NCBI GenBank assembly: GCA_963737445.1
Contig: CAVTSO010000013.1
Coordinates: forward strand, 24,756-88,755
DNA: 64,000 bases
Reading direction: 5' to 3'
Origin: an uncultured Actinomycetes bacterium
Lineage (GTDB): Bacteria > Actinomycetota > Thermoleophilia > Gaiellales > JAICJC01
In this document: one piece after another, positions 24,653 through 43,226 of the stretch
Layout of the letters: each line of letters starts with the position of its first letter
How positions within the stretch are numbered: position 1 is the stretch's first letter
Notes under the pieces: generated by a model
The model's input: the letters and a program-made list of their open reading frames with translations, nothing else
Told to the model about the DNA's origin: nothing
Database searches by the model: none
Program-made: the position numbers and the translations under genes

Positions 24653-26098
24653 ATGTTCAGCCTTGACACCGGCCGCGACGTGCTCACTCCCGACCAGCTC
24701 GACCAGGTGCACGAGCGGGCGATGACGGTGCTTGAGGAGATCGGCACGGACGTGCGCCACCCGGCGGCGCTCGAGATGCTGGCCGGGCTCGGCCAGAAGA
24801 TCGACGGCGAGCGTGTCCACTGGGATCGCGAGTTCGTGATGGAGATGCTGGCCCAGGCGCCGCATGCGTTCACGCTGCGGGGTCGCAACCCCGAGCGGGC
24901 GGTGCGGCTGGGCGACTCGAAGCCGGTGCTGACGCCGGTGGGCGGCTCGCCCTTCTGCTCCGACCTCGAGCGCGGACGCCGGGACGGCACGTACGCCGAC
25001 CACGTCGAGCTGATCAAGATGGCGCAGGCCGCCGACCTGATCACCTGCAACCAGAGCGGCACCGTCGAGGCCGGCGATCTCGATGAGAACAGCCGCCACA
25101 TGGACATGGACTACTCGGTGCTGCGGTACTCCGACAAGCCGCACGTCTGTTACGGCACCTCCGGGCCGAAGGCGCGGGACGCCGTCGCCCTGGCGGCGAT
25201 CGCGTGCGGCGGTCGCGAGGCGATCGAGCAGACGCCGGCGCTGATGGGGATCGTCAATCCCAACAGCCCGCTGGTCTGGGACTTCCTGATGGTGGATGCG
25301 TTGTCGGAATGGGCATCGGCAGGACAGCCCGTGGTGATCACGCCGTTCCTGCTGGCCGGGGCGACAGCGCCGATCACGATCGCCTCCGGGCTGGTGCTGA
25401 AGGTGGCGGAGGCGTTGTCTGGCGTGGCACTGGTGCAGGCGATCCGGCCCGGTACGCCCGCCCTGTTCGGATCGTTCTTCACCGCCGTGGACATGCGCAC
25501 CGGCGGTCCCGCCTTCGGCACGCCTGAGTCGGTGCTGGGGACGCTGGCCGGGGGCCAGCTGGCACGGCGGTACGGCCTGCCCTACCGGGGCGGCGGCGGC
25601 CTCTGCTCGTCGAACTCGCTGGACATGGCGTCGGCGGCGGAGACGGCCATGACGCTGTGGGCGACGATGCTGTCCGGCTCGCACCTGGTGATGCACGCCG
25701 CCGGCTGGCTCGAGGGCGGCCTGACGGCGTCGTACGAGAAGTTCGCGATCGACCTCGAGATGCTGCGGATGTTCGCGATGATCGACGAGGGCATCGACAC
25801 CAGCGAGGAGCGGTTCGCGATCGACGCGATGCGGGAGGAAGGGCCGGGCGGGATGTTCCTGGCCGCCGACCACACGCTCGCGCACTTCCGGGAGTGGATG
25901 TTCATGAGCCCGCTGTTCCGCTCGCAGGCCTACGTGACCTGGCAGAAGCAGGGCTCGGCCACCACCGCCACGCTGGCCACCGCCGAGTGGAAGAAGCTGC
26001 TCGAGAGCTACGTGGATCCCGGCATCGACCCGGCCGTCGACGAGGAGCTGCAGGAGTACATGCAGCGGCGCAGGGCCGAGATTGAGGCGGCCCTCTGA
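24653..26098 (+). CDS. MttB-superfamily methyltransferase, non-pyrrolysine type (paralog 1; glycine betaine/quaternary amine:corrinoid methyltransferase-like)
   Basis: Full-length 481-aa MttB-like sequence with no in-frame stop (...NPNSPLVWDFLMVDAL...GQPVVITPFLLAGATAPIT...FGTPES...). Confidence 0.85.
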   Translation: MFSLDTGRDVLTPDQLDQVHERAMTVLEEIGTDVRHPAALEMLAGLGQKIDGERVHWDREFVMEMLAQAPHAFTLRGRNPERAVRLGDSKPVLTPVGGSPFCSDLERGRRDGTYADHVELIKMAQAADLITCNQSGTVEAGDLDENSRHMDMDYSVLRYSDKPHVCYGTSGPKARDAVALAAIACGGREAIEQTPALMGIVNPNSPLVWDFLMVDALSEWASAGQPVVITPFLLAGATAPITIASGLVLKVAEALSGVALVQAIRPGTPALFGSFFTAVDMRTGGPAFGTPESVLGTLAGGQLARRYGLPYRGGGGLCSSNSLDMASAAETAMTLWATMLSGSHLVMHAAGWLEGGLTASYEKFAIDLEMLRMFAMIDEGIDTSEERFAIDAMREEGPGGMFLAADHTLAHFREWMFMSPLFRSQAYVTWQKQGSATTATLATAEWKKLLESYVDPGIDPAVDEELQEYMQRRRAEIEAAL

Positions 26099-28194
26099 TG
26101 GGCCGGGAGCACCGTCACGACATCCTGTTCGAGCCGGTGCGGATCGGGCCGAAGACGCTGCGCAACCGGTTCTACCAGGTGCCTCACTGCACCGGCTTCG
26201 GGGTCGAGAAGCCGTGGACGCAGGCGGCGTTCCGAGGGATGAAGGCGGAGGGCGGCTGGGCGGCGGTGTGCACCGAGTACTGCTCGATCAGCCCCGAGTC
26301 CGACGAGACGCCCTACGTGTCGGCGCGGCTGTGGGATGACGAGGACATGCGGGCGCTGCAGATGATGACCGACTGCGCGCACTCCCACGGCGCGCTGGCC
26401 GGGGTCGAGCTGTGGCACGGCGGCGTCTACGCCGAGGGCCGCGAGTCGCGGCTGCCGCAGCTGGCGCCGTCGCAGATCAGCAGCGACCTGGACAGCGTTG
26501 TGGTGCCAAAGACGATGGAGCCGGCCGACATCCGGCGCGCGCAGGGGGAGTGGGTCGCGGCCGCGAAGCGGGCACGCGGCGCCGGGTTCGACATCATCTA
26601 CGTGTACGGGTCACATACCTACCTGCCCACGCAGTTCCTGTCGCCGGTGTACAACCGGCGCACCGACGCATACGGCGGCAGCTTCGAGAACCGCGCGCGC
26701 TTCTGGTTGGAGGCGATCGAGCTGGTCAAGGAGGCGGTCGGCGACGACGTCGCGATCGCCGTGCGGATCGCCGCCGATTCCCTGGAGCTGTCCGGGGTCC
26801 CGATCGAGGAGGGGCTCGAGTTCATCCGCGCGGCCGACCCGATGGTCGACCTATGGGACGTGGTGATCGGCTCGATGTGGGGGGCGGGACGGCTCGACTC
26901 GGGCCCCTCGCGGTTCTTCGACCAGGGCTACCAGATGACCTGGTCGGGCCGGGCCCGCGAGGCGACCGAGAAGCCGATCGTGGTGGTGGGCAGGTTCACC
27001 GACCCCGACCGGATGGCGAACCTGGTGCGTGGCGGCACAGTCGACCTGATCGGCGCGGCGCGGCCGTCGATCTCGGACCCGTTCCTGCCGGAGAAGATCG
27101 AGCAGGGACGCTACGACGAGATCCGCGAGTGCATCGGCTGCAACGCCTGCTACTCGCGGTCGATCTGGGGCCGGCATCTGGGCTGCACGCAGAACGCCAC
27201 CGCAGGCGAGGAGTACCGGCGCGGGTGGCATCCGGAGCGGTTCGATCACGCCGAGAACGCCGACCGGTCGGTGCTGGTGGTGGGCGCCGGCCCGGCCGGC
27301 ATGGAGTGCACCACGGTGCTGGGCAAGCGCGGCATGGAGCTGGTGCACCTGGTGGACGGGGCCGACGACATCGGTGGCTGCATGAGCTGGATCACGCGCA
27401 TGCCGGGACTCGGGACGTGGGGCCACGTGATTGACTACCGGCGTGCACAGATGGACCGGCTGGACAACGTCTCGCTGGGGCTCGGCACGCGGCTGTCGGC
27501 GGCCGACGTGCTCGACTACGGCGCCCAGATCGTGATCGTGGCGACTGGTTCGCACTGGGCCGGAGACGGCATCAGCGGTGTCACGCGGCTGCCGATTCCC
27601 GGCGCGGATGCCACGCTGCCCCACGTGCTGACGCCGGAGCAGGTGATGGTCGAGGGCAAGCGCCCGCCCGGCAGCCGGGTGGCGGTCGTCGACTACGAGG
27701 GCTACTTCGTCGGTTCGGCGCTGGCCGAGCAGCTGCGCAGCGACGGTTACGAGGTCGAGTTCGTGACAAGCCACGAGGCGGTCGCGCCCTACTGCGATCA
27801 GACGCTCGAGGGCCGGCCGGTGCGGGAGCGGCTGAACGCGATCCGGGTGCCGGTGCACCGGGCGGTGGTGGTCGACCGGATCGACGAGGGCGGGATCGAC
27901 CTGGTGGGCGAGTTCCAGGCCACGTCGCGGCTGGCGGTGGACGGCGTGGTGCTGGTCACGCAGCGGCTCTCGGACGAGGCCCTGTACCGCGAGCTGGCGG
28001 GCGACCCGGCCGCCCTCGAGGCGGCCGGGATCGAGGCGGTCTACCGGATCGGCGACTGCGTCGCACCGCGCCTGATCGCGGACGCGATCTTCGACGGCCA
28101 CCGCCTGGCTCGCGAGATCGACTCGCCCGACCCGGAGCGTCCGTTGCCCTACCTACGCGAGCGGCCGCTGATGGCGGGAACGCCGGCCGGCTGA
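26098..28194 (+). CDS. trimethylamine/dimethylamine dehydrogenase-family (DgcA-like) FMN/4Fe-4S/ADP-binding flavoprotein
   Basis: N-terminal OYE-like TIM barrel with YQVPHC, which aligns with the Cys of 6-S-cysteinyl-FMN in TMADH. Cys cluster CIGCNACYSR...C followed by VLVVGAGPAG. The ATG overlaps the MttB1 stop (TGATG). Confidence 0.85.
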   Translation: MGREHRHDILFEPVRIGPKTLRNRFYQVPHCTGFGVEKPWTQAAFRGMKAEGGWAAVCTEYCSISPESDETPYVSARLWDDEDMRALQMMTDCAHSHGALAGVELWHGGVYAEGRESRLPQLAPSQISSDLDSVVVPKTMEPADIRRAQGEWVAAAKRARGAGFDIIYVYGSHTYLPTQFLSPVYNRRTDAYGGSFENRARFWLEAIELVKEAVGDDVAIAVRIAADSLELSGVPIEEGLEFIRAADPMVDLWDVVIGSMWGAGRLDSGPSRFFDQGYQMTWSGRAREATEKPIVVVGRFTDPDRMANLVRGGTVDLIGAARPSISDPFLPEKIEQGRYDEIRECIGCNACYSRSIWGRHLGCTQNATAGEEYRRGWHPERFDHAENADRSVLVVGAGPAGMECTTVLGKRGMELVHLVDGADDIGGCMSWITRMPGLGTWGHVIDYRRAQMDRLDNVSLGLGTRLSAADVLDYGAQIVIVATGSHWAGDGISGVTRLPIPGADATLPHVLTPEQVMVEGKRPPGSRVAVVDYEGYFVGSALAEQLRSDGYEVEFVTSHEAVAPYCDQTLEGRPVRERLNAIRVPVHRAVVVDRIDEGGIDLVGEFQATSRLAVDGVVLVTQRLSDEALYRELAGDPAALEAAGIEAVYRIGDCVAPRLIADAIFDGHRLAREIDSPDPERPLPYLRERPLMAGTPAG

Positions 28195-29284: not shown

Positions 29285-29572
29285 GTGATGGCGGAGTACC
29301 GGATCACCTACTGGCGCGAGATCCCCTCGATGGTGACCGCCCGCGACGGTGCGGCCACGTCCAAGGCGGCGCTGCCCGGCCGCTTCCAGGAGGCCATCGA
29401 TGAGGCCGCCATGCGCCAGGGCATGGTCGGCTCCGACGCCTACCTGGAGCAGTGGCATCATGGAGAATGGGAGCGGGCGGACGGAACGCCCGACGAGCTG
29501 GTCGCCACTCTGTCGGAGCGGCTCGACAACGACTACGACGCGGCGCGCCTGGAATCGCTGCTGGAGGTGTGA
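29285..29572 (+). CDS. small protein, probably of the 'virulence factor' (PF13769-like) family that accompanies methyltransferase operons
   Basis: YRITYWREIPSMVTARDG...FQEAIDEAAM. Its stop overlaps the next start (TGATG). The family assignment is from memory and is tentative. Confidence 0.5.
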   Translation: MMAEYRITYWREIPSMVTARDGAATSKAALPGRFQEAIDEAAMRQGMVGSDAYLEQWHHGEWERADGTPDELVATLSERLDNDYDAARLESLLEV

Positions 29573-30465
29573 TGGGACAGATCGCGACACTGCTGGGAGA
29601 CACCCGGCCGGCGCTCAGCGACGGCGCCATCGGCACCATGCTGCAGGCGGCCGGTCTCATGCCCGGCGCCTCGCCCGAGATCTGGAACGTCGAGCGCGCC
29701 GATGCCATGCGCGTGATCCACACCGCCTACGCCGATGCCGGGGCGCGTCTGCTCACCACGAACACCTTCGGCGGCACCCGCCCCCGCCTCGCCCTGCACG
29801 GCCACGAGGATCGCGTGCACGAGCTGAACGAGGCCGGAGCCCGCATCGCCCGCGACGTGGCCGACGCCTGCGGTGCGCTGGTGCTCGGCAGCATCGGCCC
29901 TACCGGCGACCTGATGGAGCCGCTGGGGCTGCTCGGCCACAACGACGCCGTCGACCTGTTCGCCGAGCAGGCCGGCGGCCTGGCCGCCGGCGGCGCCCAC
30001 ATCCTGCTGTTCGAGACGTTCAGCGATCTGGGCGAGGTGCGGGCCGGCGTCGAGGGTGCGCGCCGTGCCGCACCCGACGTGCCCGTGGCCGTGACCATGA
30101 CCTTCGACCTGAAGGGCCATACGATGATGGGCGTCAGCCCGTCGCAGGCGCTGGCCGAGATATCCGCGCTCGATGTCGAGCTGATCGGCGGGAACTGCGG
30201 CAGCGGGCCCGACGAGATCGAGGCGGTGATGGTGACCATGTCCGCCGAGCGTCCGGACGGCGTGCTGCTGCTCGCCCAGAGCAACGCCGGCCTGCCGCAG
30301 CTGGTCGGCGACGAGTTCCGCTACGGCGGCACGCCCGAGGTGATGGCCGACTACGCCCTGCGCATGCAGGAGCTGGGTGTCGATGTGATCGGCTCATGCT
30401 GCGGCAGCACGCCGTCGCACACGGCAGCGATGCGCGAGGCGCTCGGCCTGCACGTGCAGACCTAG
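29572..30465 (+). CDS. homocysteine S-methyltransferase domain protein (stand-alone MetH N-terminal-like module)
   Basis: DGAIGTMLQ...TNTFGG...ETFSDL...GGNCGSGP...GSCCGSTP. The Zn-binding Cys, Cys-Cys pattern of the Hcy-binding barrel is present. Confidence 0.8.
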   Translation: MGQIATLLGDTRPALSDGAIGTMLQAAGLMPGASPEIWNVERADAMRVIHTAYADAGARLLTTNTFGGTRPRLALHGHEDRVHELNEAGARIARDVADACGALVLGSIGPTGDLMEPLGLLGHNDAVDLFAEQAGGLAAGGAHILLFETFSDLGEVRAGVEGARRAAPDVPVAVTMTFDLKGHTMMGVSPSQALAEISALDVELIGGNCGSGPDEIEAVMVTMSAERPDGVLLLAQSNAGLPQLVGDEFRYGGTPEVMADYALRMQELGVDVIGSCCGSTPSHTAAMREALGLHVQT

Positions 30466-30481
30466 CCTGATCAACCATCTA
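30466..30481. repeat. solo copy of the GATGGTTGATC terminal motif, on the minus strand directly after the ferredoxin stop
   Basis: CCTGATCAACCATCTA matches 13 of 15 positions of the right terminus of the element at 41250-41264. Confidence 0.4.
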
Positions 30482-30667
30482 GCCCTCGATCGTGATCGAC
30501 ATGGTCGGGCACGCGTCCGCGGCCGCCTCCACGTCGTCGCGCAGCGCCTCGTCCACGTCCGCCTGATAGCGCAGTAGCTGCGGCGACACCAGCTGGAACA
30601 CCTCCGGGCACTCGATCATGCACTGCCCGTGGTGTTGGCAGGTCTGCTCGTCGACCACCACCCTCAT
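30479..30667 (-). CDS. small ferredoxin (P450-associated type)
   Basis: 62 aa, MRVVVDEQTCQHHGQCMIECPEVF...ADACP. The ATG overlaps the P450 stop (ATGA). Confidence 0.75.
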   Translation of the reverse strand: MRVVVDEQTCQHHGQCMIECPEVFQLVSPQLLRYQADVDEALRDDVEAAADACPTMSITIEG

Positions 30668-31881
30668 CCCACGACCTCCCGGTCGAACGCGATCGGCAGC
30701 TCCACCGGCCCCGTCAGCCCGCTCACCGGCCGCACCACCGGCTCCGCGGTGTAGCGCGGGTTCGGCATCCGGCGCGCGATCAGCGGCAGCGCCTCGCGCA
30801 TGTCGATCCGCGCCAGCCAGTGCCCGATGCAGTGGTGCGCGCCACCGCCGAACCCGAAGTGCGGCGGCCGCTCGGCCGTGATGTCGAACCGCCCGCCCTC
30901 GCCCACCGCCAGCGGGTCGGTGTTGGCGGGGTACGACAGCAGGTGCAGCGTCGTGCCCTCCGGCAGCGCCAGCCCGCCGAACTCCATGTCCTCCGTGGTG
31001 CGACGCGTCGCCCACATCACCGTCGGGTTCCAGCGGATCAGCTCCTCGACCGCGTTCGGCGCCAGCTCCGGCCGCTCGGCCAGAAGCGCGCACTGGTCGG
31101 GGTGCTCGACGAACAGCTGCATCGCCAGCCCCAGCTGGTTCTTGGTCGTGTCCATCCCCCCGAACACGATCAGCGACACCATCGCCAGCAGTTCGATGTC
31201 CGACAGCGACCCCTCCTCGGCGTCGTGCGCCTGCACCAAACTCGAGACCACGTCGTCGCGCGGCCGCACCCGCCGGTCGGCGATCAGCTGCTCCGACACC
31301 GCGTACAGGTTCTGCAGCGCATCCTCGATTCGTCCCTGGTCTTCGCGGATCGTGACGCCGAACGACAGCCCCAGATCGGTCGACCATCGCGACAGGTCGT
31401 GCCAGCGCGCCTCGTCCATGCCGATCAGCTTGCACAGCACCCGCGCCGCGTAGGGCTCAGCGAACTGCGAGACGAACTCGCAGCCGCCCTCGGCCGCGTA
31501 CGCGTCGATCAGCTCGTCGGCCAGCGCCCGGAACTCCGGGCTCATCCGCTCGATCAGCGTCCGCGAGAAGGCCGGGTTGGCCAGCTTGCGCAGCCGCCGG
31601 TGGTCGTCGCCCTCCTTGCTGAGCATGATCTCGGCCCACCACTCCGATAGCAGCCCGTCTTCGATGCCGTTCTGGGCCGGCCAGGCGAAGCTGCCCTGCC
31701 GCAGCCGCCGGTCCTTCAGAAGCGCGCTCACCTCGTCGTAGCGGAGCACGGCCAGGCCGAAGTTGGTGCGCGCCCACCAGCTCTGCTCGCGCGCCGCCGC
31801 CACGGCCGCGGACGAGGCGGAGAAGAAGGGATCCGAGATGTCGAACGACGGGACGTCGGCGGTGTCGATCGAGAGCGTCAT
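30664..31881 (-). CDS. cytochrome P450
   Basis: Haem-thiolate loop FGFGGGAHHCIGHWLA, an EELIRW (ExxR) motif and an I-helix-like FGGMDTT. Confidence 0.9.
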   Translation of the reverse strand: MTLSIDTADVPSFDISDPFFSASSAAVAAAREQSWWARTNFGLAVLRYDEVSALLKDRRLRQGSFAWPAQNGIEDGLLSEWWAEIMLSKEGDDHRRLRKLANPAFSRTLIERMSPEFRALADELIDAYAAEGGCEFVSQFAEPYAARVLCKLIGMDEARWHDLSRWSTDLGLSFGVTIREDQGRIEDALQNLYAVSEQLIADRRVRPRDDVVSSLVQAHDAEEGSLSDIELLAMVSLIVFGGMDTTKNQLGLAMQLFVEHPDQCALLAERPELAPNAVEELIRWNPTVMWATRRTTEDMEFGGLALPEGTTLHLLSYPANTDPLAVGEGGRFDITAERPPHFGFGGGAHHCIGHWLARIDMREALPLIARRMPNPRYTAEPVVRPVSGLTGPVELPIAFDREVVG

Positions 31882-31897
31882 GCCCCGGGATTCTGCC

Positions 31898-33337
31898 TCA
31901 GTCGCCGAGCTCTTTCCGGCGCCGGGTGACGAAGTCGGTAAGCTCCTGGCGCAGCTCCGGGTCGATCGCGGGCGGCTCGTACTGCTCCAGCCGCTCGCGC
32001 CAGATCTCGCCGGCCCGCTCCGTCGCGTCCCGCTCGCCCAGCCGCTTCCAGCGCTCGAAGTTCTCTGTCGACGACAGCAGCGGCCGGTAGAAGCAGTCGC
32101 GGAACCGCTCCAGCGTGTGCGCCGCGCCCAGGAAGTGCCCGCCCGGGCCCACCTCCTCGTGCGCCCCGAATGCGAGCGAGGCCTCGTCCACCTCGAGCGG
32201 GGTGAACTCGACCTTCAGCATCCGCAGCACCTCGATGTCGACGATGAACTTCTCGTAGCACGAGACCAGGCCGGACTCCAGCCAGCCGGCCGAGTGCATG
32301 ACCCAGTTGGTGCCGGCCAGGAAGGTCGGGATCATGGTCATGCAGGCCTCGTAGGCCGACTGCGCGTCCACGGTCTGGCTGGACGTGAAGCCGCCGCCGG
32401 ACCGCCACGGCAGGCCGAAGTGGCGGGCGATCTGGCCGGTGCAGAACAGGCCTGTCGCCGACTCCGGGGTGCCGAAGCTGGGCGACCCCGACTGCATGTC
32501 GGTGTTCGAGAGGAACGACCCGAAGATCACCGGCGCGCCCGGCCGCAGCAGCTGCGCCAGCGCGATCCCCGCCAGCGCCTCGGCCATCTGCTGGACGAGC
32601 GTCGCCGGGATCGTTACCGGCGACATCGCGCCCATCAGCAGGAACGGCGTGATCACGACCGGCTGGCCGGCGCGCACGTACTCGAACATGGCCGCCAGCA
32701 TGCGGTCGTCGTAGCGCAGCGGCGAGTTGACGTTGATCAGCCCGATCACGCCCGGCGTGCGCTCGATCGACTCGCGTCCGCCGAGCAGCATCTCGGTCAT
32801 GCGCACCGAGTCGGCCGCGTTGGGCCCGGAGGTGACGGAGCCCATGTAGGGCTTGTCGGTCAGCGTCTGCAGCGCGAACACCATGTCCAGGTGGCGGGAG
32901 TCGAGCGGCCGGTCGTTGGGCTCGCAGATGGTGCCGCCGGCCGAGTCGAGCTCGTCGAACGACTGGGACAGCATGGTCAGCCGCTCGAAGTCCTGCATCG
33001 TGGCGTCGCGGCGGATGTCGCCCTCGCGCACGAACGGCGGCCCGTAGACCGACGCGAACGCCATGTGATCGCCGCCGATGTGGATGTTGTGCTCGGGGTT
33101 GCGGGCCTGCACGTCGAACTCGTGCGGCGCCTTCGCCACCTGTTCGAGCACGAAGTCGGGGTCGAGGAAGACCTTATCGCCGTCGGTCTTCTGGCCGGCC
33201 TTGGCGAACACCTCGACCGCCTCCGGCAGGATGAACTCGACGCCGATCTCCGAGACGATGCGCCGCCAGCCCCCGTCCAGGGTGGCGATCGCCTGCTCTG
33301 ACAGAATCTCGTAGCGCGGCATCCGGTTGACGAACAT
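31898..33337 (-). CDS. MttB-superfamily methyltransferase, non-pyrrolysine type (paralog 2)
   Basis: Full-length MttB-like sequence (..NVNSPLRYDDRMLAAMFEYVRAGQPVVITPFLLMGAMSPVT..FGTPES..) with no in-frame stop. I chose the ATG at 33337, which follows GGGAGAGGG. Confidence 0.85.
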   Translation of the reverse strand: MFVNRMPRYEILSEQAIATLDGGWRRIVSEIGVEFILPEAVEVFAKAGQKTDGDKVFLDPDFVLEQVAKAPHEFDVQARNPEHNIHIGGDHMAFASVYGPPFVREGDIRRDATMQDFERLTMLSQSFDELDSAGGTICEPNDRPLDSRHLDMVFALQTLTDKPYMGSVTSGPNAADSVRMTEMLLGGRESIERTPGVIGLINVNSPLRYDDRMLAAMFEYVRAGQPVVITPFLLMGAMSPVTIPATLVQQMAEALAGIALAQLLRPGAPVIFGSFLSNTDMQSGSPSFGTPESATGLFCTGQIARHFGLPWRSGGGFTSSQTVDAQSAYEACMTMIPTFLAGTNWVMHSAGWLESGLVSCYEKFIVDIEVLRMLKVEFTPLEVDEASLAFGAHEEVGPGGHFLGAAHTLERFRDCFYRPLLSSTENFERWKRLGERDATERAGEIWRERLEQYEPPAIDPELRQELTDFVTRRRKELGD

Positions 33338-33362
33338 TCGCCCTCTCCCTAAGATCTTGGTA

Positions 33363-33382
33363 TGTGGAACAATCGTTCCACA
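33363..33382. promoter_or_regulatory. palindrome TGTGGAAC-aatc-GTTCCACA in the 45-bp divergent region between MttB2 and the IclR gene (candidate IclR operator)
   Basis: Perfect 8-bp arms, read directly. It abuts or overlaps the IclR ATG (33382) and lies 26-45 bp upstream of the MttB2 ATG. Confidence 0.5.
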
Positions 33383-34164
33383 TGATGAGTCGAAAAGCAA
33401 TGACCGGAACCCAGGCGATAGATCGTGCCGCCCAGCTGCTCGTCCTCGTCGTCGAGAACGAGTCGTCGAGCAGCGTCGGCGAGCTGGCCGAGGCCGCCGG
33501 ACTCCCCAAGAGCACCGTGTCGCGCGCCGTGTCGGCGCTCGAGCGGCAGGGCCTGGTGCAGCGGAGCAGCGCCCGCGGCAGCATCCGCCCGGGGCCGGTG
33601 CTGCTGGGCCTGGCCCGGCGGGGCGTCGGCGAGGAGGACATCGCCGAGCTGTGCCGCGAGGCGCTCGACAACCTGGCCGACGCCACCGGCGAGACCATCG
33701 ACCTGGCGGTCGCCGTGCCGGGCGGCTCCGAGCAGTACATCGCCCAGGTCGACAGCCGCCACATCCTGGGCACCACCAACTGGGTGGGACGGCGCCTGCC
33801 CCACCACTGCACCGCGGTCGGCAAGGTGCTGGTCGCGTTCGGCGCGGCGGGCCTCCAGCGGGGCGCGCTGGAGCGGCTCACCCCCGACACCATCACCGAT
33901 CGCGACGCGCTGTCGGCAGAGCTGGATACGGTGCGGGTATGCGGATATGCGACCGCCGTGGGCGAGCTGGAGCCGGGCCTGGTGGCCGTTGCGGCGCCGG
34001 TGCTTGATGCCGATGGCCGGGCCGTGGCTGCGATCAGCATCTCGGGGCCGCAGTTCCGGATACCGAGCGATCGGCTGGACGGGTTTGGCAAACTCCTGAC
34101 GAAGGAGACGGAAACGCTTTCGGCGCGCCTGGGATTCCGGCCGGCCGGGGAGGGAGCAGCATGA
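33382..34164 (+). CDS. IclR family transcriptional regulator
   Basis: N-terminal HTH (VGELAEAAGLPKSTVSRAVSALERQGLV) and a C-terminal IclR effector domain (..GELEPGLVAVAAPVLDADGRAVAAISISGP). Confidence 0.85.
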   Translation: MMSRKAMTGTQAIDRAAQLLVLVVENESSSSVGELAEAAGLPKSTVSRAVSALERQGLVQRSSARGSIRPGPVLLGLARRGVGEEDIAELCREALDNLADATGETIDLAVAVPGGSEQYIAQVDSRHILGTTNWVGRRLPHHCTAVGKVLVAFGAAGLQRGALERLTPDTITDRDALSAELDTVRVCGYATAVGELEPGLVAVAAPVLDADGRAVAAISISGPQFRIPSDRLDGFGKLLTKETETLSARLGFRPAGEGAA

Positions 34165-34829
34165 CCACCGACGAGATCCTGCAAGGGCTGTTCGACAACA
34201 CGCTGATCGGAAACGCGCCGGCCGTCAAGGACCTCACCAACGAGGGGCTGGCCATGGGCATGGATCCCGAGACGCTGCTCTATGACGCCCTGATCCCGTC
34301 GCTGGAGGAGGTGGGCGCCCGCTTCGAGCGCGGCGACTTCTTCGTCCCGGAGATGCTGATTGCCGCGCGGGCAATGCAGGGCGCCCTGGACATCCTGCGC
34401 CCATTGCTGGCCGAGACCGGCGCCAAGCCGATCGGCACGTTCGTGATGGGCACCGTCAAGGGCGACGTGCACGACATCGGCAAGAACCTCGTCAATATCA
34501 TGCTCGAGGGCGCCGGCTTCACCGTATACGACCTGGGCGTGAACGTGGCGCCCGAGAAGTTCGTGGAGCAGGTGCAGGAGCACGAGCCCGACATCGTCGG
34601 CTTCTCGGCCTTCCTGACAACAACCATGCCGATGTTCAAGGCCAACATCAACGCGCTCGAGAAGTCGGGCCTGCGCGACCGCGTGATCGTGATGGTGGGC
34701 GGCGCGCCGGTGACCCAGGAGTACGCCGACGCGGTCGGCGCCGACGGCTACGCCGCCGACGCGTCCACCGCGGTGCGCCTCGCCAAGACCCTGATCGAGA
34801 ACCGCCGATCGGCGGCGACGCCGGCATGA
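34161..34829 (+). CDS. cobalamin (corrinoid)-binding protein, cap plus Rossmann B12 domain
   Basis: B12 lower-ligand motif GDVHDIGKN plus ..SAFLTTTM.. and ..VGGAP.. The ATG overlaps the IclR stop (ATGA). Confidence 0.9.
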   Translation: MTTDEILQGLFDNTLIGNAPAVKDLTNEGLAMGMDPETLLYDALIPSLEEVGARFERGDFFVPEMLIAARAMQGALDILRPLLAETGAKPIGTFVMGTVKGDVHDIGKNLVNIMLEGAGFTVYDLGVNVAPEKFVEQVQEHEPDIVGFSAFLTTTMPMFKANINALEKSGLRDRVIVMVGGAPVTQEYADAVGADGYAADASTAVRLAKTLIENRRSAATPA

Positions 34830-35707
34830 CCCAGGCCGTCTCCGAACGGTTGCGGTCGCTGGCCGCCACGGCCAGCATCGAGGTGACGCCGCGCCACGTG
34901 GCCGCCGTGACCGAGCTCGACGGCGTGTTGCCCGCCGGGACATCGGTCTACATCACAGCGCTTCCGGGAGCCGACCCATGCGACCTGGTGACGGCCGCCG
35001 AGACCATCCGCGCCGCCGGCCACGTGCCGGTGCCGCACCTGACGGCGCGCGCTATCGCCGGCGACGAGGCGCTGGATGCGCTGCTCTCGCAACTCCGCGA
35101 GCGCGCCGCGGTCGACGACGTGCTCGTGATCGCGGGCGGAGGGGCGACGGTCGCCGGCGACTACTACAGCTCTATGGACGTGCTGCGGTCGGGCCTGCTG
35201 GAGCGACACGGCATCTTTCGCGCCGGCGTCGCCGGGCACCCCGAGGGCAGCCCCGACATCTCACCCGAGGCGATCCTCGAGGCCCTCGCCGAGAAGAACG
35301 CCTTCGCCGCCGCATCGGCGATCGAGCTGCGCATCGTCAGCCAGTTCGCGCTGGCGCCCGAGCCGTACGTGACCTGGGAGCGCGGGCTGCGTGAGGCGGG
35401 AAACCGGCTGCCGGTGGTGGCAGGCATCCCCGGCGTGACCTCGCCCCCCTCGCTGCTCAAGTTCGCGCTGGCCTGTGGCATCGGCCCCTCCGTGGAGGTG
35501 CTCCGCAAGCAGTCGGGCGGGTTGCTGAAGCTGGCAACGACCCGGCTGTGGCGGCCCGACCAGCTGGCCGAGGACATCGCGCAATCGACTGTCCACGATC
35601 CCGGCAGCCTGATCGAGGGCCTGCATCTGTTCCCCTTCGGCGGGGTCGAGCGATCGGCCCGATGGCTGGCCGAGATGCGCACCGCGCCGGCTGCGGTGCC
35701 GGGATGA
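34826..35707 (+). CDS. methylenetetrahydrofolate reductase (MetF)-like protein
   Basis: MTHFR-like barrel segments (SIEVTPR...VPHLTAR...VLVIAGG...GVAGHPEG...IVSQFA...IPGV). The ATG overlaps the upstream stop (ATGA). Confidence 0.7.
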   Translation: MTQAVSERLRSLAATASIEVTPRHVAAVTELDGVLPAGTSVYITALPGADPCDLVTAAETIRAAGHVPVPHLTARAIAGDEALDALLSQLRERAAVDDVLVIAGGGATVAGDYYSSMDVLRSGLLERHGIFRAGVAGHPEGSPDISPEAILEALAEKNAFAAASAIELRIVSQFALAPEPYVTWERGLREAGNRLPVVAGIPGVTSPPSLLKFALACGIGPSVEVLRKQSGGLLKLATTRLWRPDQLAEDIAQSTVHDPGSLIEGLHLFPFGGVERSARWLAEMRTAPAAVPG

Positions 35708-35725: not shown

Positions 35726-36589
35726 ATGCAGACCACCATTGAGTCGCGGTCGCGCACGGTCGTGATCGGGGACGGCGCGCCGTTCTGCGTGATCGGCGAG
35801 CGCATCAACCCCACCGGCCGCAAGGCCTTCCAGGCGCAGCTGCAGGCCGGCGACCTGTCGCAGCTCGAGATCGACGTGGCCGAGCAGGTGGCCGGCGGCG
35901 CCGACGTGCTCGACGTCAACGTGGGCGATCCGCTGGCCGACGAGATCGAGCTGATGCGGGCTGCCGTGCCGATGGTGCAGGGCCTGACCGACCTGCCGCT
36001 GTGCATCGACTCCTCCATCATCGAGGCGCTCGAGGCCGGCCTCGGGGCGTACGAGGGCAAGGCGCTCGTCAACTCGGTCACCGGTGAGGACGAGCGGCTG
36101 AACCTGATCCTGCCGATCGTGGCCCGCCACGGCGCGGCGGTGATCGGCCTCGCCAACGACGACGAGATCCCGATGGAGCCGGAGCGCCGGCTGGAGGTGG
36201 CCCGCAAGATCGTCTCGGCCGCCGGCGACCACGGCATCCCGCCGCAGGACGTCGTGATCGACCCGCTGGCGATGCCGGTCGGCGCCGAGCCGCGCGCGGT
36301 CACGCTGTTCCTGGAGACGGTGCGGCTGATCCGCGACGACCTGGGCGTGAACATGACCTGCGGCGCCAGCAATACCTCGTTCGGGCTGCCCGGCCGCCAC
36401 ACCCTGGGCGCCGCCTTCCTGGCGGTCTCACAGAGCCACGGGTTGACCAGCGCCATCATGGACGCGCGCGCTCGCGAGTGCGTCGAGTCGGTGCGAGCCA
36501 CCGACTTCCTGCTCGGCCAGGACGAGTGGGGCGCGCGCTGGATCGCCGCGCACCGGGCCAAGCTGGCGGCGCAGGCCGCGACAAGCTAG
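35726..36589 (+). CDS. pterin-binding methyltransferase (methyl-corrinoid:tetrahydrofolate methyltransferase; MetH pterin domain/AcsE-like)
   Basis: VIGERINPTGRK...DVLDVNVG...LCIDSS...ALVNSV...GASNTSFGLP are typical DHPS-like pterin barrel motifs. Confidence 0.8.
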   Translation: MQTTIESRSRTVVIGDGAPFCVIGERINPTGRKAFQAQLQAGDLSQLEIDVAEQVAGGADVLDVNVGDPLADEIELMRAAVPMVQGLTDLPLCIDSSIIEALEAGLGAYEGKALVNSVTGEDERLNLILPIVARHGAAVIGLANDDEIPMEPERRLEVARKIVSAAGDHGIPPQDVVIDPLAMPVGAEPRAVTLFLETVRLIRDDLGVNMTCGASNTSFGLPGRHTLGAAFLAVSQSHGLTSAIMDARARECVESVRATDFLLGQDEWGARWIAAHRAKLAAQAATS

Positions 36590-36591
36590 CG

Positions 36592-38451
36592 GTGTCGGTG
36601 GACGCCGAGACGATCGAGCCAGGAACCGGACGCGTCCGGCTGACGTTCGCGCCCGACGGCGGCGAGGTGCGCGTCCCGGCCGGCACCACCGTGTTCGACG
36701 GGGCCAGCTGGAACGGCATCGCCATCGACTCGACCTGCGGCGGCCACGGCACCTGCAAGAAGTGCAAGGTGCGGATCACCGACGGCGAGGTGCCGGTCGA
36801 CACGCTGGATCCGCGCGCGTTCAGCCCCGACGAGCTGCGCGGCGGCTGGCGGCTGGCCTGCCGCGCGATCGCCACCCACGACCTCGCCGTCGAGGTGCCG
36901 CCGCTGCAGACCCGCCCCAAGGCGGCGCTGGTCGGCGTCGGCCGCCACGTGATCCTGCGCCCGTCCGTGCAGAAACGCTTCCTGGAGCTGGAGGAGCCGT
37001 CGCTCGAGGACCAAGCGGCCGACATGGAGCGCGTGGTGGATGCGGTCGAGGACTTCGAGCTGCGGGTTGAGCTGGGCGCCGCGCGCGGCATCGGCCGCAC
37101 CCTGCGGTCATCCAACTTCAAGGTCACCGCCGTCATCTGCGACGACGTGCTGATCGACGTCGAGCCCGGTGACACCACCGAGCGGCGCCACGCGATCGCC
37201 TTCGACCTGGGCACGACCACGGTGGTGGCGACGCTGCTCGACCTCGCCACGGGCCAGCCGCTGGCCGTGCGCTCGATGCTGAACCGCCAGCAGCCGTTCG
37301 GCGCGGACGTGATCTCGCGCGTCTCGGCCACGATGATGGACCCGGACGCGCTGGAGATGCTCCAGCAGCGGGCGCATGAGACGATGAACGGCCTCGCCGG
37401 CGAGGTCTGCGAGGAGGCCGGCCTGTCCCCGACGGAGGTGTACGAGATCGTGGTCTGCGGCAACGTCACGATGATGCAGCTGGCGCTGGGCATCGACCCC
37501 GAGCCGCTGGGCATGTCACCCTTCATCATCACCGCCCGGCGGCTGCCGCCGGCGGTTGCCTCCGACTTCGGCGTGCGCGTGCACCCGCGCGCGCCGGCCG
37601 CCGTGTTCCCGGCGCTGGGCGCCTACGTGGGCGGAGACATCGTCGCCGGCATGCTCGCCACCGGCCTCACCCGCGACCGCCGCGTGCGCCTGTTCATCGA
37701 CGTCGGCACCAACTCCGAGATCGCGCTCGGCTCGAGCGAGCGGGTGGTCGCAACTGCAGCGCCGGCCGGGCCCGCATTCGAGGCCGCCCAGATCCGCTGC
37801 GGCATGCGTGCCGCCGAGGGCGCGATCGAGGGCGTCGCGATCAGCGGCGAGGAGATGTCCCTTGAGGTGATCGGCGACGCCACGCCGGTCGGCATGTGCG
37901 GCTCCGGCCTGGTGGATGCCGTCGCCCAGCTGGTGGCGGCCGGCCTGCTCGACCACTCCGGCCGCTTCATCCCCGACGCCGCCGCCGCCGAGCTGCACCC
38001 GCAGCTGAGCACGCGTCTGGTGAAGGTGGGCGAGGAGCGGGTGTTCGTGCTGGCATGGCGCGGAGACGACCCCGCGAACTCGATCTACCTGTCGCAGCGC
38101 GACGTGCGCGAGCTGCAGTTCGCCAAGGCCTCGATCGCGACCGGCTGGCGGATCCTGATCAAGGAGCTCGGCCTCGGCGAGGACGAGATCACCCAGGTGC
38201 TGCTGGCGGGCAGCTTCGGCAGCTACCTGTCGCCTGCCAGCGCCGTGCGCATCGGCCTGGTGCCGAAGCTGGCGCTGCCGCGCATCATCTCGGCCGGGAA
38301 CGTGGCCGGTGAGGGCGCCAAGATGGCGGCGCTGTCGCTGCGGGAGCGGGCGGCGGCCGACGCGATTCTGGATGAGGTCGAGTACGTGGAGCTGTCCGGG
38401 CGGGCAGACTTCAACGACATGTTCATGGACGAGCTGGCGTTCCCGGGATGA
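36592..38451 (+). CDS. corrinoid reductive activase (RACo/RamA-like): 2Fe-2S ferredoxin domain plus ASKHA ATPase domain
   Basis: N-terminal [12 protein letters not shown] plant-type ferredoxin motif. ASKHA-like [11 protein letters not shown]...[12 protein letters not shown]...MCGSGL follows. The GTG start is 2 nt after the upstream stop. Confidence 0.8.
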
Positions 38452-39026
38452 CGACGGCCGTGATCGCATGCGGCGCGCTCGCCTTGCACGTGAACGCCAT
38501 CGCCGAGCGGCGCGGCTGGGAGATCGATGTGCACCCGCTGCCGCCGGAGCTGCACAACCGCCCGGAGCAGATCGCACCTGCCGTCGGCCGTCTGGTGGAC
38601 GAGCTGGCCGGCCGCTACCAGCGCGTGGCGGTCGCCTACGCCGACTGCGGCAGCTACGGAGCGCTCGACCACGAGCTCCGTCGCCGCGGCATCGAGCGGC
38701 TGGAGGGCGACCACTGCTACGACGTGTTCGGGAGGCCGGAGGTGGCCGAGGCGCTGGCCGAGCAGCCCGGCACCTACTTCCTGACCGATTTCCTGGCGCG
38801 CACCTTCGACCGCACGGTCTGGCGGTCGCTGGGCCTCGACCGGCATCCCGAGCTGCGCGACGACTACTTCCACTCCTACACCCGGGTGATCTGGCTGGCG
38901 CAGCGGCGAACGCCCGACCTGCTGGAGCTGGCCGAGCGGGCGGCCGCCATGCTGGGGCTGCCGCTGGAGGTGCGCGACGTGGGCGAGTCGGGGCTGGAGG
39001 CACAGCTGGAGCGCCTCGCGGCATGA
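38448..39026 (+). CDS. DUF1638 domain protein
   Basis: [11 protein letters not shown]...[11 protein letters not shown]...GDHCYDVF...YFLTDFLAR. Start and stop both overlap the neighbours (ATGA on both sides). Confidence 0.75.
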
Positions 39027-40153
39027 GCGACGCGACCTCGATGCGCGCGGCACTGCTGCCCGCTCCGGGCACGCCGCTGCGGGTGGTCGAGCTCGAGCTG
39101 GCCGCGCCCGGCCCCGGTGAGGTGCTGGTGCGTCTGCGCTCCAGCGGCGTCTGCCAGGACGACCTGAACCTGCTCGACGGCACGGTCGACGTGCCCGCCC
39201 CGGTCGTGCCCGGCCACGAGGGAGCCGGCGTCGTCGAGGCTCTGGGCGAGGGCGTGCAGGGGCTTGCGCCCGGCGATCACGTGGCGCTGTCCTGGGCCCC
39301 CTACTGCGGCAGGTGCGAGGAGTGCCTGCGCGATCTGCCGCACCTGTGCGGCACGGCCTGGCCGCTGATGCTGGGCGGCGGTCTGCTCGACGGCACCACC
39401 CGCCTCCGCTTCGGCGGGGCGGAGGTGCACCACTACTGCTTCCTGTCCACCTTCGCGGAGCGTGCGGTCGTGCCCGCCCGGTCGTGCGTCCAGATCCCCG
39501 CCGACGTGCCGTTCGAGGTGGCGGCGCTGCTCGGCTGTGCGGTGACGAGCGGCGTCGGCGCCGTCTGGCGCACCGCCGGCGTGCGGCCGGGCGAGCGGGT
39601 GGCGGTGATCGGTACCGGCGGCACCGGGCTCTCGGCTGTGATGGGCGCGGTCGCCTCGGGTGCGTCGCAGGTGATCGCCGTCGACCGCCGGCACGAGCGC
39701 CTCGAGCGCGCCCAGCAGCTCGGGGCCAGCGCCGTCGTGCAGTGGCAGGGTGAGCCGGAGCGGGTCGCCGAGGCGGTGGTGTCGGCCAGCGGCGGCGGCG
39801 TCGACTACGCCATCGACTGCACCGGACGGCCCGGTCCGATGCGGGCCGCGTTCCTGTCCACGCGCAAGCGGGGAGCCGCCGTGATGGCCGGCATCCCGCG
39901 CGCCGAGGCCGAGCTGACGGTGCCCGCGCGGTCGATCCCGCGGATGGAGCGACGGGTGCTGGGATCGATCTACGGGTCGGCCCGGCCCGACCGCGACTTC
40001 CCGCTGATCCTCGACGCCTACCGGCGCGGACGGCTGCCGCTCGACCGGCTGATCTCACACCGGCTGACCCTGGACGAAGTCGGCGCCGGCATCGACGCGG
40101 TGCGCTCGGGCGATGCCACGCGGGTGGTGCTCGACCTGGGAGGCGACGCGTGA
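39023..40153 (+). CDS. zinc-dependent alcohol dehydrogenase family (class III / formaldehyde dehydrogenase-like)
   Basis: GVCQDDL...[16 protein letters not shown]...CGRCEECL (structural Zn Cys cluster)...[12 protein letters not shown] (NAD fold). Confidence 0.8.
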
Positions 40154-43200: not shown

Positions 43201-43226
43201 CAGCAGCGCGATCAGGGCGACGGGCT

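Follow-up and report, generated by a model that had tools for sequence, protein, structure and literature searches.

A P450-ferredoxin pair as an optional addition behind an MttB-family methyltransferase gene in soil Gaiellales

Gaiellales are abundant and almost uncultured in soil, where betaines derived from plants and microbes are major sources of nitrogen and carbon. In the stretch of DNA analysed here (64 kb, hereafter the window), which comes from a soil bacterium of this actinobacterial order, the gene for a methyltransferase of the MttB superfamily, MttB2, is followed directly by genes for a cytochrome P450 and a small ferredoxin. Do these proteins attack one substrate in two steps, one corrinoid-dependent and the other oxygen-dependent, as a preliminary description of the locus proposed, or did the P450 and its ferredoxin come from elsewhere, bringing their own substrate with them? 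A search of the literature found no MttB-family gene tied to a P450, in agreement with that description. The linkage, not reported before, is genuine; it is nonetheless an optional extra, confined to a narrow group of relatives.

MttB2 and the genes packed behind it

The features considered below are these, by position in the window:

24653-26098, plus strand: MttB1, a second MttB paralogue (Pfam match)
26098-28194, plus strand: OYE/TMADH/DgcA-like Fe-S flavoprotein, 698 aa (Pfam match), overlapping MttB1 by one base
29285-30465, plus strand: small PF13769 protein, then a BHMT/MtgE-like homocysteine S-methyltransferase (NF005718, 294 bits, below the cut-off of 338)
30479-30667, minus strand: single-cluster ferredoxin (CxxHxxC...CP), 62 aa (Fer4_13, E 3e-11; Fer4_15, E 7.5e-11)
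30664-31881, minus strand: cytochrome P450 of the PipA/MorA/AurH-like (CYP151-type) lineage, 405 aa (PF00067)
31898-33337, minus strand: MttB2, non-pyrrolysine MttB-superfamily methyltransferase, 479 aa (PF06253)
33327-33355, plus strand: sigma-70-like promoter match TTGACG-17-TAAGAT (consensus match only)
33362-33383, no strand: palindromic operator-like site ATGTGGAAC-N4-GTTCCACAT between MttB2 and IclR, with conserved arms
33382-34164 (alternative start 33400), plus strand: IclR-family regulator, first gene of the corrinoid operon (HTH_IclR, E 1.2e-11; IclR_C, E 6.8e-35)
34161-34829, plus strand: MtgC-like corrinoid protein (B12-binding and B12-binding_2)
34826-35707, plus strand: MetF2-like divergent methylene-THF reductase (weak PF02219 match)
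35726-36589, plus strand: MtgD-like methyl-THF:corrinoid methyltransferase (Pterin_bind; NF005719, 295 bits against a cut-off of 259)
36478-38451, plus strand: RACo/RamA-type reductive activase with N-terminal 2Fe-2S domain (Fer2, RACo_linker, Raco_middle, RACo_C_ter)
38448-39026, plus strand: DUF1638 protein (Pfam match)
39023-40153, plus strand: Zn-dependent alcohol/formaldehyde-type dehydrogenase, ADH (Pfam match)
40150-40593, plus strand: GFA formaldehyde-activating enzyme, end of the corrinoid operon (Pfam match)
41254-43500: Fer4/CCG protein resembling, with the MttB1-OYE pair, oxidative N-demethylases

MttB2 runs from an ATG at 33337, with a Shine-Dalgarno sequence (GGGAGAGGG) just upstream, to a TGA at 31898-31900. 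The P450 gene starts at 31881, 16 nt past that stop, and its own TGA (30664-30666) overlaps the ferredoxin ATG (30665-30667) within ATGA, all as the preliminary description had it. No intrinsic terminator-like site was found within 30200-33600. The short gap, the overlap, and the lack of such a site together support a single transcript, and the packing agrees with the three-gene unit proposed earlier, which would almost certainly be expressed from the regulated promoter of mttB2. On the far side, the homocysteine S-methyltransferase gene converges on the ferredoxin gene, their stops 13 nt apart.

Residues 3-478 of MttB2 cover positions 25-500 of the 500 in PF06253 (E 1.6e-184). A pyrrolysine-containing trimethylamine enzyme is ruled out: the score against the corresponding equivalog, TIGR02369, is 272 bits (cut-off 525), and the reading frame is uninterrupted, with no in-frame amber codon. 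The closest matches in the PDB are 4YYC and MtgB (2QNE/9YCE), at E about 1e-121. MtgB of Desulfitobacterium hafniense contacts its substrate through Y97, R312, H348, and F356 (Picking et al. 2026, PMC13080624). MttB2, which aligns over its full length, has three of the four glycine-betaine contacts (Y98, R312, and H348). It differs from MtgB in its aerobic host and in a glycine in place of F356; nearby W352, in an AGWLESGL motif common to 4YYC, could stand in for the missing side chain. On these grounds, MttB2 is a probable MtgB-type betaine:corrinoid methyltransferase, and its candidate partners (the MtgC-like and MtgD-like proteins and RACo) are encoded in the divergent operon. MttB1 keeps only the arginine and the histidine.

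The corrinoid operon and its palindrome

In the divergent operon, the stop of the IclR gene overlaps the start of the MtgC-like gene (ATGA, 34161-34164), whose product has as its top NCBIfam match the glycine betaine-specific corrinoid protein MtgC, under the cut-off of that family. RACo probably starts near 36586, because its orthologues are 592-621 aa in length. The order DUF1638-ADH-GFA is repeated in three related loci (L118, L119, and L120).

The nearest known system is the aerobic MtgBCD(E) glycine betaine demethylase, or split methionine synthase, of Ruegeria pomeroyi (Mausz et al. 2025, PMC12478193). The two share a PF06253 MtgB-type protein, MtgC, MtgD, MetF2 (its gene in the same position in both), RamA/RACo, DUF1638, and an MtgE/BHMT-like protein, within an aerobe. 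They differ in that the window holds one compact island, with an IclR gene, a palindromic operator-like site, two MttB paralogues, ADH and GFA within the operon, and, behind MttB2, a P450 with its ferredoxin; the parts of the Ruegeria account consulted mention no P450.

The preliminary description had the two operons diverging across 45 bp with a perfect palindrome in the gap. The palindrome is there (TGTGGAAC-AATC-GTTCCACA, 33363-33382, the arms reaching 9 bp if the flanking A...T at 33362-33383 is counted), but the gene facing MttB2 is that of the IclR regulator, and the gap is 44 bp if that gene starts at the ATG at 33382, inside the palindrome, or 62 bp if it starts at 33400. Gene callers pick either type of start among the orthologues. 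The one promoter-like match in 30200-33600, TTGACG-17-TAAGAT, would place the start of the IclR operon at the palindrome.

When as many as 3 mismatches are allowed, the palindrome still has no second copy in the window (0.10 chance occurrences expected). Its arms are kept in all 13 orthologous loci examined, perfectly in 12 and with one mismatch in L107, while the 4-nt spacer and the flanks vary: a phylogenetic footprint rather than chance. As the earlier description supposed, there is thus a conserved operator-like site beside an IclR gene. However, loci that lack the P450 have it too; the palindrome goes with the ancestral control region of IclR and MttB2, not with the P450 in particular.

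Origin and distribution of the P450

The P450 (62 bits against PF00067, cut-off 22.8) retains a heme-thiolate loop of the FxxGxxxCxG form (FGFGGGAHHCIG), the acid-alcohol pair of the I-helix (FGGMDTT), and the ExxR motif as EELIR. Its best solved relative is AurH of Streptomyces thioluteus (3P3L/3P3O, E 1.8e-79 over residues 7-400; the runner-up is at 1e-51), a polyketide-tailoring enzyme with no known genomic or functional tie to the metabolism of amines or methyl groups. The window P450 shares 53-60% identity with those of GntR-P450-ferredoxin-reductase-GS clusters (GS, glutamine synthetase-like), for example 53% to the P450 adjoining xplB/xplA on pGKT2 of Gordonia KTR9 and 55% to one in a mor-like cluster of Mycolicibacterium chlorophenolicum (L084). 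Judged by sequence, then, the P450 belongs to the amine-oxidising PipA/MorA/AurH-like lineage, to which, presumably, the CYP151 names (CYP151A for PipA and MorA) apply; the preliminary description had allowed for a family with unrelated substrates, and it does not fall in one.

PipA of M. smegmatis and MorA of Mycobacterium sp. HE5 oxidise N-heterocycles (piperidine, pyrrolidine, and morpholine) and are encoded beside ferredoxin, reductase, and GS genes, in clusters that also carry a GntR regulator. The window shares with them the lineage of the P450 and a ferredoxin directly downstream; unlike theirs, its P450 is flanked by no gene for a reductase, a GS-like ligase, an amidase, an aldehyde dehydrogenase, or a GntR regulator. 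A GS-like ligase, an amidase, a ferredoxin reductase, and a GntR regulator are in fact absent from the entire 64 kb. The window P450 also has WPAQNGI, TKNQ, and WATRR for the WPAHNGV, TRNQ, and WVTRE of the mycobacterial group, so its substrate is probably different.

Among 80 genome loci whose P450s are 53-60% identical, some 55 have genes for GntR, ferredoxin, ferredoxin reductase, a GS-like ligase, an SBP-like protein, Peptidase_C26, and aldehyde dehydrogenase; these GntR-P450-ferredoxin-reductase-GS-like-amidase clusters serve the catabolism of gamma-glutamyl amines. Known routes of this kind are Puu, for putrescine, and Ipu, for isopropylamine in Pseudomonas sp. KIE171. The ancestral cassette resembles them in its GS-like ligase, oxidation of the gamma-glutamyl amide, aldehyde dehydrogenase, and Peptidase_C26 hydrolase; in the window, unlike in Puu and Ipu, the oxidation module alone survives.

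How widely is the arrangement conserved? At least 12 more independent contigs carry MttB2-P450-ferredoxin, spread over several sub-lineages of the P450. The form without other genes, V1, is seen in L006, L009, L089-L091, L095, L104, L107, L118, L122, and L123, with reading frames intact everywhere except in the error-prone L118. A second form, V2 (MttB2, GS-like, P450, ferredoxin, SBP), is complete in L092 and partial in L004, L005, L094, L096, and L117, and L010 carries a free-standing cassette of GS-like, P450, and ferredoxin genes next to GntR. Partner genes of the pip/mor type (GntR, ferredoxin reductase, and GS-like) are present in sister loci (L010 and L092) as well as in the roughly 55 genomes.

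The synteny on which the preliminary description relied recurs, then, on many independent Gaiellales contigs. It is absent, however, beside the MttB2 orthologues of L119, L120, and L121, which are 82-89% identical to MttB2 and have the same neighbours and the same palindrome. There, the stop of MttB2 lies 9-13 nt (L119 and L120) or about 400 nt (L121) from the stop of the convergent homocysteine methyltransferase gene. It follows that P450-ferredoxin is an accessory pair, inserted where two genes converge. The longer gap of L121 is filled with hairpin-rich sequence. Traffic at the site appears also in L004 and L092, whose flanks are 95-99% identical to those of the window around P450s only 83% identical, which shows exchange of cassettes behind MttB2. 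In the tree of P450s, those linked to GS are basal, and no fixed residue difference separates them from the P450s of V1, whose monophyly has a bootstrap value of 36%. Both MttB2 and the P450 are under purifying selection (dN/dS of 0.13-0.27 for the P450 at dS about 0.5, matched by the dS of MttB2).

What the P450 may do

We favor the view that an aerobic MtgBCD-type betaine locus captured an amine-oxidising P450 module. Its parts taken jointly (insertion, IclR control, and a substrate other than the product of MttB2), the chance that it is right is about even. Gene content, packing, conservation, the polymorphic insertion, and family ties are observed; where it concerns co-transcription, repressor binding, substrates, and chemistry, the account is an inference and runs as follows. 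The locus would be the Gaiellales form of aerobic cobalamin-dependent betaine demethylation (MtgB/MtgC/MtgD, MetF2, RACo, DUF1638, and an MtgE-like homocysteine methyltransferase), with an IclR-family repressor acting through one palindromic operator between two divergent promoters. MttB2 would move a methyl group from a quaternary amine bearing a carboxylate, most likely glycine betaine, onto Co(I)-MtgC. A P450 and its ferredoxin, taken from a gamma-glutamyl-amine cassette (GntR, GS-like ligase, CYP151-type P450, ferredoxin, and SBP-like protein), would have entered the short convergent gap between mttB2 and the homocysteine methyltransferase gene in one sub-lineage, shedding its own regulator and, in the variant found in the window, the ligase and SBP-like genes as well. 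The pair would now be transcribed by read-through from the betaine-responsive mttB2 promoter. The ferredoxin, whose cluster is predicted to be 3Fe-4S, would feed electrons to the P450 from a reductase encoded elsewhere, and the P450 would hydroxylate the carbon beside an amine nitrogen, the carbinolamine collapsing to an aldehyde or formaldehyde and a dealkylated amine. Its substrate would probably be a small amine or the gamma-glutamyl amide of one, not the direct product of MttB2, and the P450 would be an optional extension of the methylated-amine island with no obligatory partnership with MttB2.

The captured-module view is supported by the match of the component set to the Ruegeria system, by the neighbours and palindrome kept in the loci without P450, by the coexistence of V1, V2, and the free-standing cassette, by the roughly 55 amine clusters with related P450s and the documented chemistry of PipA and MorA, and by the basal position of the GS-linked P450s without fixed differences from those of V1. 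The cassette exchange seen in L004 and L092, the purifying selection, and the packing of the three genes speak for it as well. Other observations weigh against it: the low bootstrap value for V1, the formaldehyde-handling ADH and GFA genes at the end of the divergent operon, and the retention in V1 of P450 and ferredoxin without ligase and SBP-like gene, which suggests a role that needs no gamma-glutamylation. Moreover, at least four P450 sub-lineages have the module behind MttB2, its own regulator gone, and a benefit from co-expression with betaine demethylation would account for this more readily.

A rival is the two-step attack, in which MttB2 takes the first methyl group of a betaine and the P450, with its ferredoxin, oxidatively takes a further N-methyl from the tertiary or secondary amine that results (dimethylglycine, sarcosine, or N-methylproline, for example), ADH and GFA dealing with the formaldehyde. 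In its favor, the genes lie tightly packed and would come under common IclR control, with ADH and GFA in the same regulon; the pairing has lasted in several sub-lineages under purifying selection; V1 has lost the ligase, with none encoded within the 64 kb; and the oxidation next to an amine nitrogen known from this P450 lineage is what N-demethylation calls for. There is also a parallel in the coupling of MttB1 to a flavoprotein resembling oxidative demethylases. DgcAB is a dimethylglycine demethylase and StcD an N-methylproline demethylase; the MttB1-OYE pair and the Fer4/CCG protein resemble these, while the P450 differs from them in cofactors and fold. The MttB1-OYE pair is a precedent within the same window for an MttB paired with an oxidative demethylase.

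Nonetheless, the two-step reading is rather unlikely. MttB2 orthologues in the same locus do without the P450, their substrate-contact residues identical to those of MttB2 with it and only two fixed differences, both conservative, setting the groups apart. V2 places a gamma-glutamyl ligase between MttB2 and a P450 with no fixed difference from that of V1. For the later demethylations, the window has DgcA/DgcB-like, DMGDH-like, and MSOX-like enzymes in any case, conventional oxidases of the dimethylglycine and sarcosine type. Finally, roughly 59 non-Gaiellales relatives of the P450, like the P450s about 70% identical to it, have no MttB gene within 10 kb. With the P450-less orthologues, the gamma-glutamyl relatives, and the resident oxidases, the two-step attack is a possibility and no stronger. 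Unlikely too is the general form of the idea, in which a CYP151-type P450 has taken on O2-dependent N-demethylation downstream of a cobalamin-dependent methyltransferase of the MttB family: a betaine would give up its first methyl through the corrinoid enzyme to the folate pool and a later one through the P450 as formaldehyde.

Perhaps the pair does nothing at all, a degraded remnant of an amine cassette hitch-hiking in a permissive gap between convergent genes. The cassette is indeed partial, with no ligase, SBP-like, reductase, amidase, or regulator gene; close relatives differ in whether they have the insertion; and L121 has its hairpin-rich filler in the same gap. This is quite improbable, however, in view of the intact V1 frames, a dN/dS well constrained over the same dS as MttB2, the full set of P450 catalytic motifs, and the persisting translational coupling of P450 and ferredoxin. 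It is very improbable that the ferredoxin, alone or together with the P450, works for the corrinoid system, for instance as donor to RACo in re-reducing Co(II): corrinoid reactivation in an aerobe needs low-potential electrons and the ferredoxin is presumably co-regulated, but RACo has its own 2Fe-2S domain, the corrinoid set is complete in loci without the P450, and the ferredoxin adjoins the 3' end of the P450 gene in nearly all related loci, including those without corrinoid genes.

A recently recognised aerobic system for B12-dependent demethylation of betaines is thus met in Gaiellales as a compact island, apparently under IclR control, with an amine-oxidising P450 module captured under what may be the same control. 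Should an amine derived from a betaine be the substrate of the P450, the locus would be the first pathway to unite corrinoid and P450 demethylation, a hybrid of B12 and heme chemistry previously undescribed; it would give a physiological substrate to a widespread, poorly understood P450 lineage and a new substrate class to CYP151-type P450s. Even if it is not, the three states of the site (nothing, P450-ferredoxin, or GS-P450-ferredoxin-SBP) are a natural experiment on the shuffling of catabolic modules and their re-wiring to new regulators, and the conserved palindrome offers a candidate operator, directly testable, for an uncharacterised IclR regulator.

Genes of the betaine-demethylation island

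The gene content shows the locus to be an aerobic corrinoid island for betaine demethylation, of a kind already known, and its putative IclR operator is conserved. Its components match the set described in 2025 for Ruegeria pomeroyi (PMC12478193), which comprises an aerobic cobalamin-dependent demethylase of glycine betaine and a split methionine synthase. The preliminary description was accurate in placing MttB2, a P450 beginning 16 nt beyond its stop, and a 62-aa ferredoxin joined by a stop/ATG overlap in one row:

31898-33337, minus strand: MttB2, ATG at 33337 to stop at 31898-31900, 479 uninterrupted codons; Pfam MTTB, E 1.6e-184
30664-31881, minus strand: P450, start at 31881 to TGA at 30664-30666, 405 codons; Pfam p450, 62 bits against a cut-off of 22.8
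30479-30667, minus strand: ferredoxin, ATG at 30665-30667 to 30479, 62 codons; single-cluster type, Fer4_13/Fer4_15 (Pfam)

A ribosome-binding site, GGGAGAGGG, lies upstream of the MttB2 ATG. In the P450, FGFGGGAHHCIG forms the heme loop, FGGMDTT marks the I-helix, and ExxR is also present; the ferredoxin carries CxxHxxC...CP. The whole of 30200-33600 lacks terminator-like hairpins, and the P450 and ferredoxin genes follow mttB2 so closely that nothing but read-through transcription can reasonably be expected. In L118, a contig 98% identical to the window, the calls for MttB, the P450, and a MetF2-like gene are split, most likely by assembly frameshifts rather than because they are pseudogenes.

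Convergent on the ferredoxin, and 13 nt from it, are a small PF13769 protein and a homocysteine methyltransferase similar to BHMT and MtgE. The former ("Virulence factor", 29285-29572, 95 aa) precedes the latter wherever the region was annotated, and could represent an overlooked subunit of the split methionine synthase. Beyond the homocysteine methyltransferase lie a SAM methyltransferase and the second paralogue, MttB1, which overlaps by one base a 698-aa Fe-S flavoprotein resembling OYE, TMADH, and DgcA (the pair at 24653-28194). A DgcB-like Fer4/CCG protein is encoded 13 kb from this pair, at 41254-43500. The window further encodes an 839-aa protein resembling DMGDH and sarcosine dehydrogenase, a serine/threonine dehydratase, and a monomeric sarcosine-oxidase-like enzyme.

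The best solved relatives of MttB2 are 4YYC and D. hafniense MtgB (2QNE/9YCE), with E about 1e-121. Mutagenesis and a ligand-bound structure of MtgB show that Y97, R312, H348, and F356 hold glycine betaine (PMC13080624), and the substrate class of MttB2 was judged from these four experimentally defined contacts. MttB2 retains Y98, R312, and H348, both carboxylate ligands among them, whereas the fourth contact (F356) is replaced by G, with W352 close by. Also, the MttB2 orthologue in the P450-less contig L121 adjoins a GMC (choline-dehydrogenase-like) oxidoreductase and a DMGDH-like gene. These relatives, contacts, and neighbors indicate that MttB2 is most likely of the MtgB type, with a carboxylate betaine (probably glycine betaine) as its substrate. 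A Pyl-type TMA methyltransferase was considered and rejected (TIGR02369, 272 bits against a cut-off of 525). MttB1 has only the R and H of the four MtgB contacts, and the absence of the tyrosine of the aromatic pair suggests that its substrate is probably a different betaine from that of MttB2.

Three arrangements at one site

Locus contexts were gathered through look-ups seeded with the P450, a genome scan with each species represented once, a metagenome scan, and look-ups seeded with MttB2, and the window's proteins served as tblastn queries to annotate all loci. The closest relatives of the P450 (98% identity) and of MttB come from soil metagenomes and bear Gaiellales or Thermoleophilia labels. 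The window's order, MttB2-P450-ferredoxin, was found in contigs whose P450s are 97-98% (L009, L089, L090, L091, L104, L118) or 81-83% (L006, L095, L107) identical to that of the window, and in two whose MttB2 is 89-91% identical (L122, L123). In the second arrangement, a GS-like ligase stands between MttB2 and the P450 and an SBP_bac_3-like gene follows the ferredoxin. This arrangement is complete in L092; in L004, L005, L094, L096, and L117 the contigs run out within it, so it is partial. The third has no P450 at all (L119, L120, and L121, with MttB2 89, 84, and 82% identical, respectively) but shares the window's IclR-MtgC-MetF2-MtgD-RACo-DUF1638 operon and the convergent homocysteine methyltransferase, whose stop in L119 and L120 is 9-13 nt from that of MttB2. 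The synteny first seen in the window recurs across many Gaiellales contigs, with or without the ligase, but is absent in these last three. Among about 59 non-Gaiellales loci, no MttB gene lies within 10 kb of the P450.

In L121, a gap of about 400 nt (9441-9846) occupies the position of the window's P450 and ferredoxin. What fills it are GC-rich palindromes that form perfect hairpins (GGTGTCCGGCAC/GTGCCGGACACC and GGGGTCTGGCAC/GTGCCAGACCCC), whose REP-like character suggests that the convergent gap is a hotspot for insertions.

P450 identities across the two P450-bearing groups are 80-88%. A neighbor-joining tree places the GS-linked P450s (L096, L094, and L010 with L004 and L092) at its base and groups those in the window's arrangement only weakly (36% bootstrap), which makes the GS-linked state look ancestral, as it also is across the family at large. 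The flanking genes of L004 and L092 are 95-99% identical to the window's, but identity is only 83% in the P450 and 77% in the ferredoxin, and the P450 of these two contigs matches that of a free-standing GntR|GS-P450-ferredoxin cassette in L010 at 90-91% identity. Such near-identical flanks around a divergent pair show that the interval between mttB2 and the homocysteine methyltransferase is swapped by recombination among close relatives. Both enzymes are under purifying selection, which is somewhat weaker on the P450: between the window and L006, dS is 0.48 for the P450 and 0.56 for MttB2, with dN/dS of 0.25 and 0.10, and between the window and L104, dN/dS is 0.135 and 0.043. A search for neofunctionalisation found no fixed residue difference between P450s in the window's arrangement and GS-linked P450s. 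P450-linked and P450-less MttB2 differ by only two fixed residues, both conservative.

The palindrome TGTGGAAC-AATC-GTTCCACA (33363-33382, arms extending to 9 bp) does lie, as originally described, between MttB2 and the divergent operon. No second copy occurs in the window when up to three mismatches are tolerated (0.10 matches expected by chance), and the palindrome is present in all three arrangements with invariant arms and variable spacer and flanks, so that it belongs to the ancestral IclR/MttB2 control region. The divergence also stands, and the gene directly across from MttB2 encodes an IclR-family regulator. Its stop and the start codon of the gene after it overlap, so the regulator heads the operon:

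33382 or 33400 (start): IclR-family regulator
MtgC-like corrinoid protein
MetF2-like divergent MTHFR
MtgD-like methyl-THF:corrinoid methyltransferase
RACo activase with 2Fe-2S domain
DUF1638 protein
39023-40593: zinc alcohol/formaldehyde-type dehydrogenase and GFA formaldehyde-activating enzyme

An in-frame IclR ATG within the right arm of the palindrome (33382-33402) is kept in all orthologues, and a second conserved ATG lies 6 codons downstream. The former, with a promoter-like match at 33327-33355 ahead of the gene, suggests an IclR mRNA that may have little or no leader, beginning inside its own operator. The dehydrogenase and GFA close the operon in L118, L119, and L120 as well, which implies that the betaine island makes free formaldehyde even in loci without the P450.

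Lineage of the P450

The best solved relative of the P450 is AurH (3P3L/3P3O; E 1.8e-79, against 1e-51 for the next). The genome scan found P450s 53-60% identical in genera including Streptomyces, Mycobacterium, Mycolicibacterium, Rhodococcus, Nocardioides, and Actinomadura and also in Halomonadaceae, Rhodobacteraceae, and Xanthobacter. About 55 of 80 loci (L084 is one) share most of one set of neighbors: a GntR regulator, a 62-aa ferredoxin, a ferredoxin reductase, a GS-like ligase, an SBP_bac_3-like protein, an aldehyde dehydrogenase, and Peptidase_C26 amidases, of which there are one or two. This layout also fits gamma-glutamylation pathways such as Puu and Ipu. Of the models compared, those of type III GS and gamma-glutamylputrescine synthetase match the cassette-encoded GS-like protein of Gaiellales best. 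The same layout is reported for M. smegmatis pipA and for morA in Mycobacterium sp. HE5, each of which adjoins ferredoxin, reductase, and GS genes and is induced by, or has been shown to oxidise, piperidine, pyrrolidine, or morpholine (PMC9477822). A literature search on CYP151 found no functional detail.

Gordonia sp. KTR9 plasmid pGKT2 (L124, 5395-12406) carries a 53% identical P450, flanked by an FCD/GntR regulator and a cache-domain protein and by an FAD oxidoreductase and a 552-aa P450 (xplB/xplA-like). The former P450 is presumably cyp151C, and the region presumably the xplR-cyp151C-glnA/xplB-xplA region of RDX degradation. The region shows this lineage being carried on plasmids together with other genes for the catabolism of nitrogen compounds.

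Gaiellales P450s about 70% identical to the window's (L001, L007, L008, L013-L025, L098-L116) lie in a conserved operon of cupin, P450, ferredoxin, and a 308-aa unknown protein. Where the upstream region was annotated (L001, L007, L008), this operon diverges from a SAM-cycle operon encoding a homocysteine methyltransferase-SAM methyltransferase fusion, then MetK, a PfkB kinase, and AdoHcy hydrolase, which is a second, separate tie of the P450 group to methyl-group metabolism. Another Gaiellales P450, 79% identical, adjoins a GntR regulator and a proline-racemase-family gene.

The SBP_bac_3-like protein (210-260 aa; L004 2873-3508, L092 3009-3638, L030-L088 about 14000-14900) is encoded after the GS-like ligase in the ligase-bearing Gaiellales arrangement and in most ligase-bearing CYP151-type amine clusters. 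Its N-terminus has no apparent signal peptide. It might, for example, bind a gamma-glutamyl moiety or be an enzyme derived from a binding protein. The 64-kb window was searched for GS-like, SBP-like, Peptidase_C26 amidase, reductase, and aldehyde dehydrogenase genes, and it has none of them.

Role of the P450 and ferredoxin

We give an even chance to the P450 and ferredoxin serving accessory, co-regulated amine oxidation rather than an obligatory second step on the product of MttB2. The P450 would hydroxylate the carbon adjoining nitrogen, leading to C-N cleavage. This reading is favored because the same MttB2 works without the pair, because the sister arrangement retains a gamma-glutamyl ligase, because the window's P450 set is indistinguishable from the GS-linked set, and because the window already has conventional enzymes for dimethylglycine and sarcosine.

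The preliminary description had MttB2 and the P450 attacking one substrate in two steps. Such sequential demethylation is possible but doubtful. In its favor, the pair was retained though ligase and SBP-like gene were lost, it stands repeatedly behind mttB2, and it now has no regulator of its own. Also, the alcohol dehydrogenase and GFA fall within the regulon, and the chemistry of the P450 lineage is compatible with N-demethylation. A hybrid B12/heme demethylation pathway, the boldest reading, is likewise possible but doubtful. The description professed no awareness of a corrinoid-dependent methyltransferase sharing a transcription unit with a P450/ferredoxin pair, and a literature search found no published link between an MttB-family gene and a P450. 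That the pair is a functionless remnant or pseudogene is improbable given the selection signal and the intact motifs, and the ferredoxin is most improbable as donor to RACo in corrinoid reactivation, since it always accompanies the P450.

In one Gaiellales sub-lineage, the island acquired by insertion a P450-ferredoxin module of amine-catabolic ancestry, which shed its own regulator and became tightly packed behind mttB2. Every part of the locus comes from a known family; the combination is a narrow, polymorphic variant.
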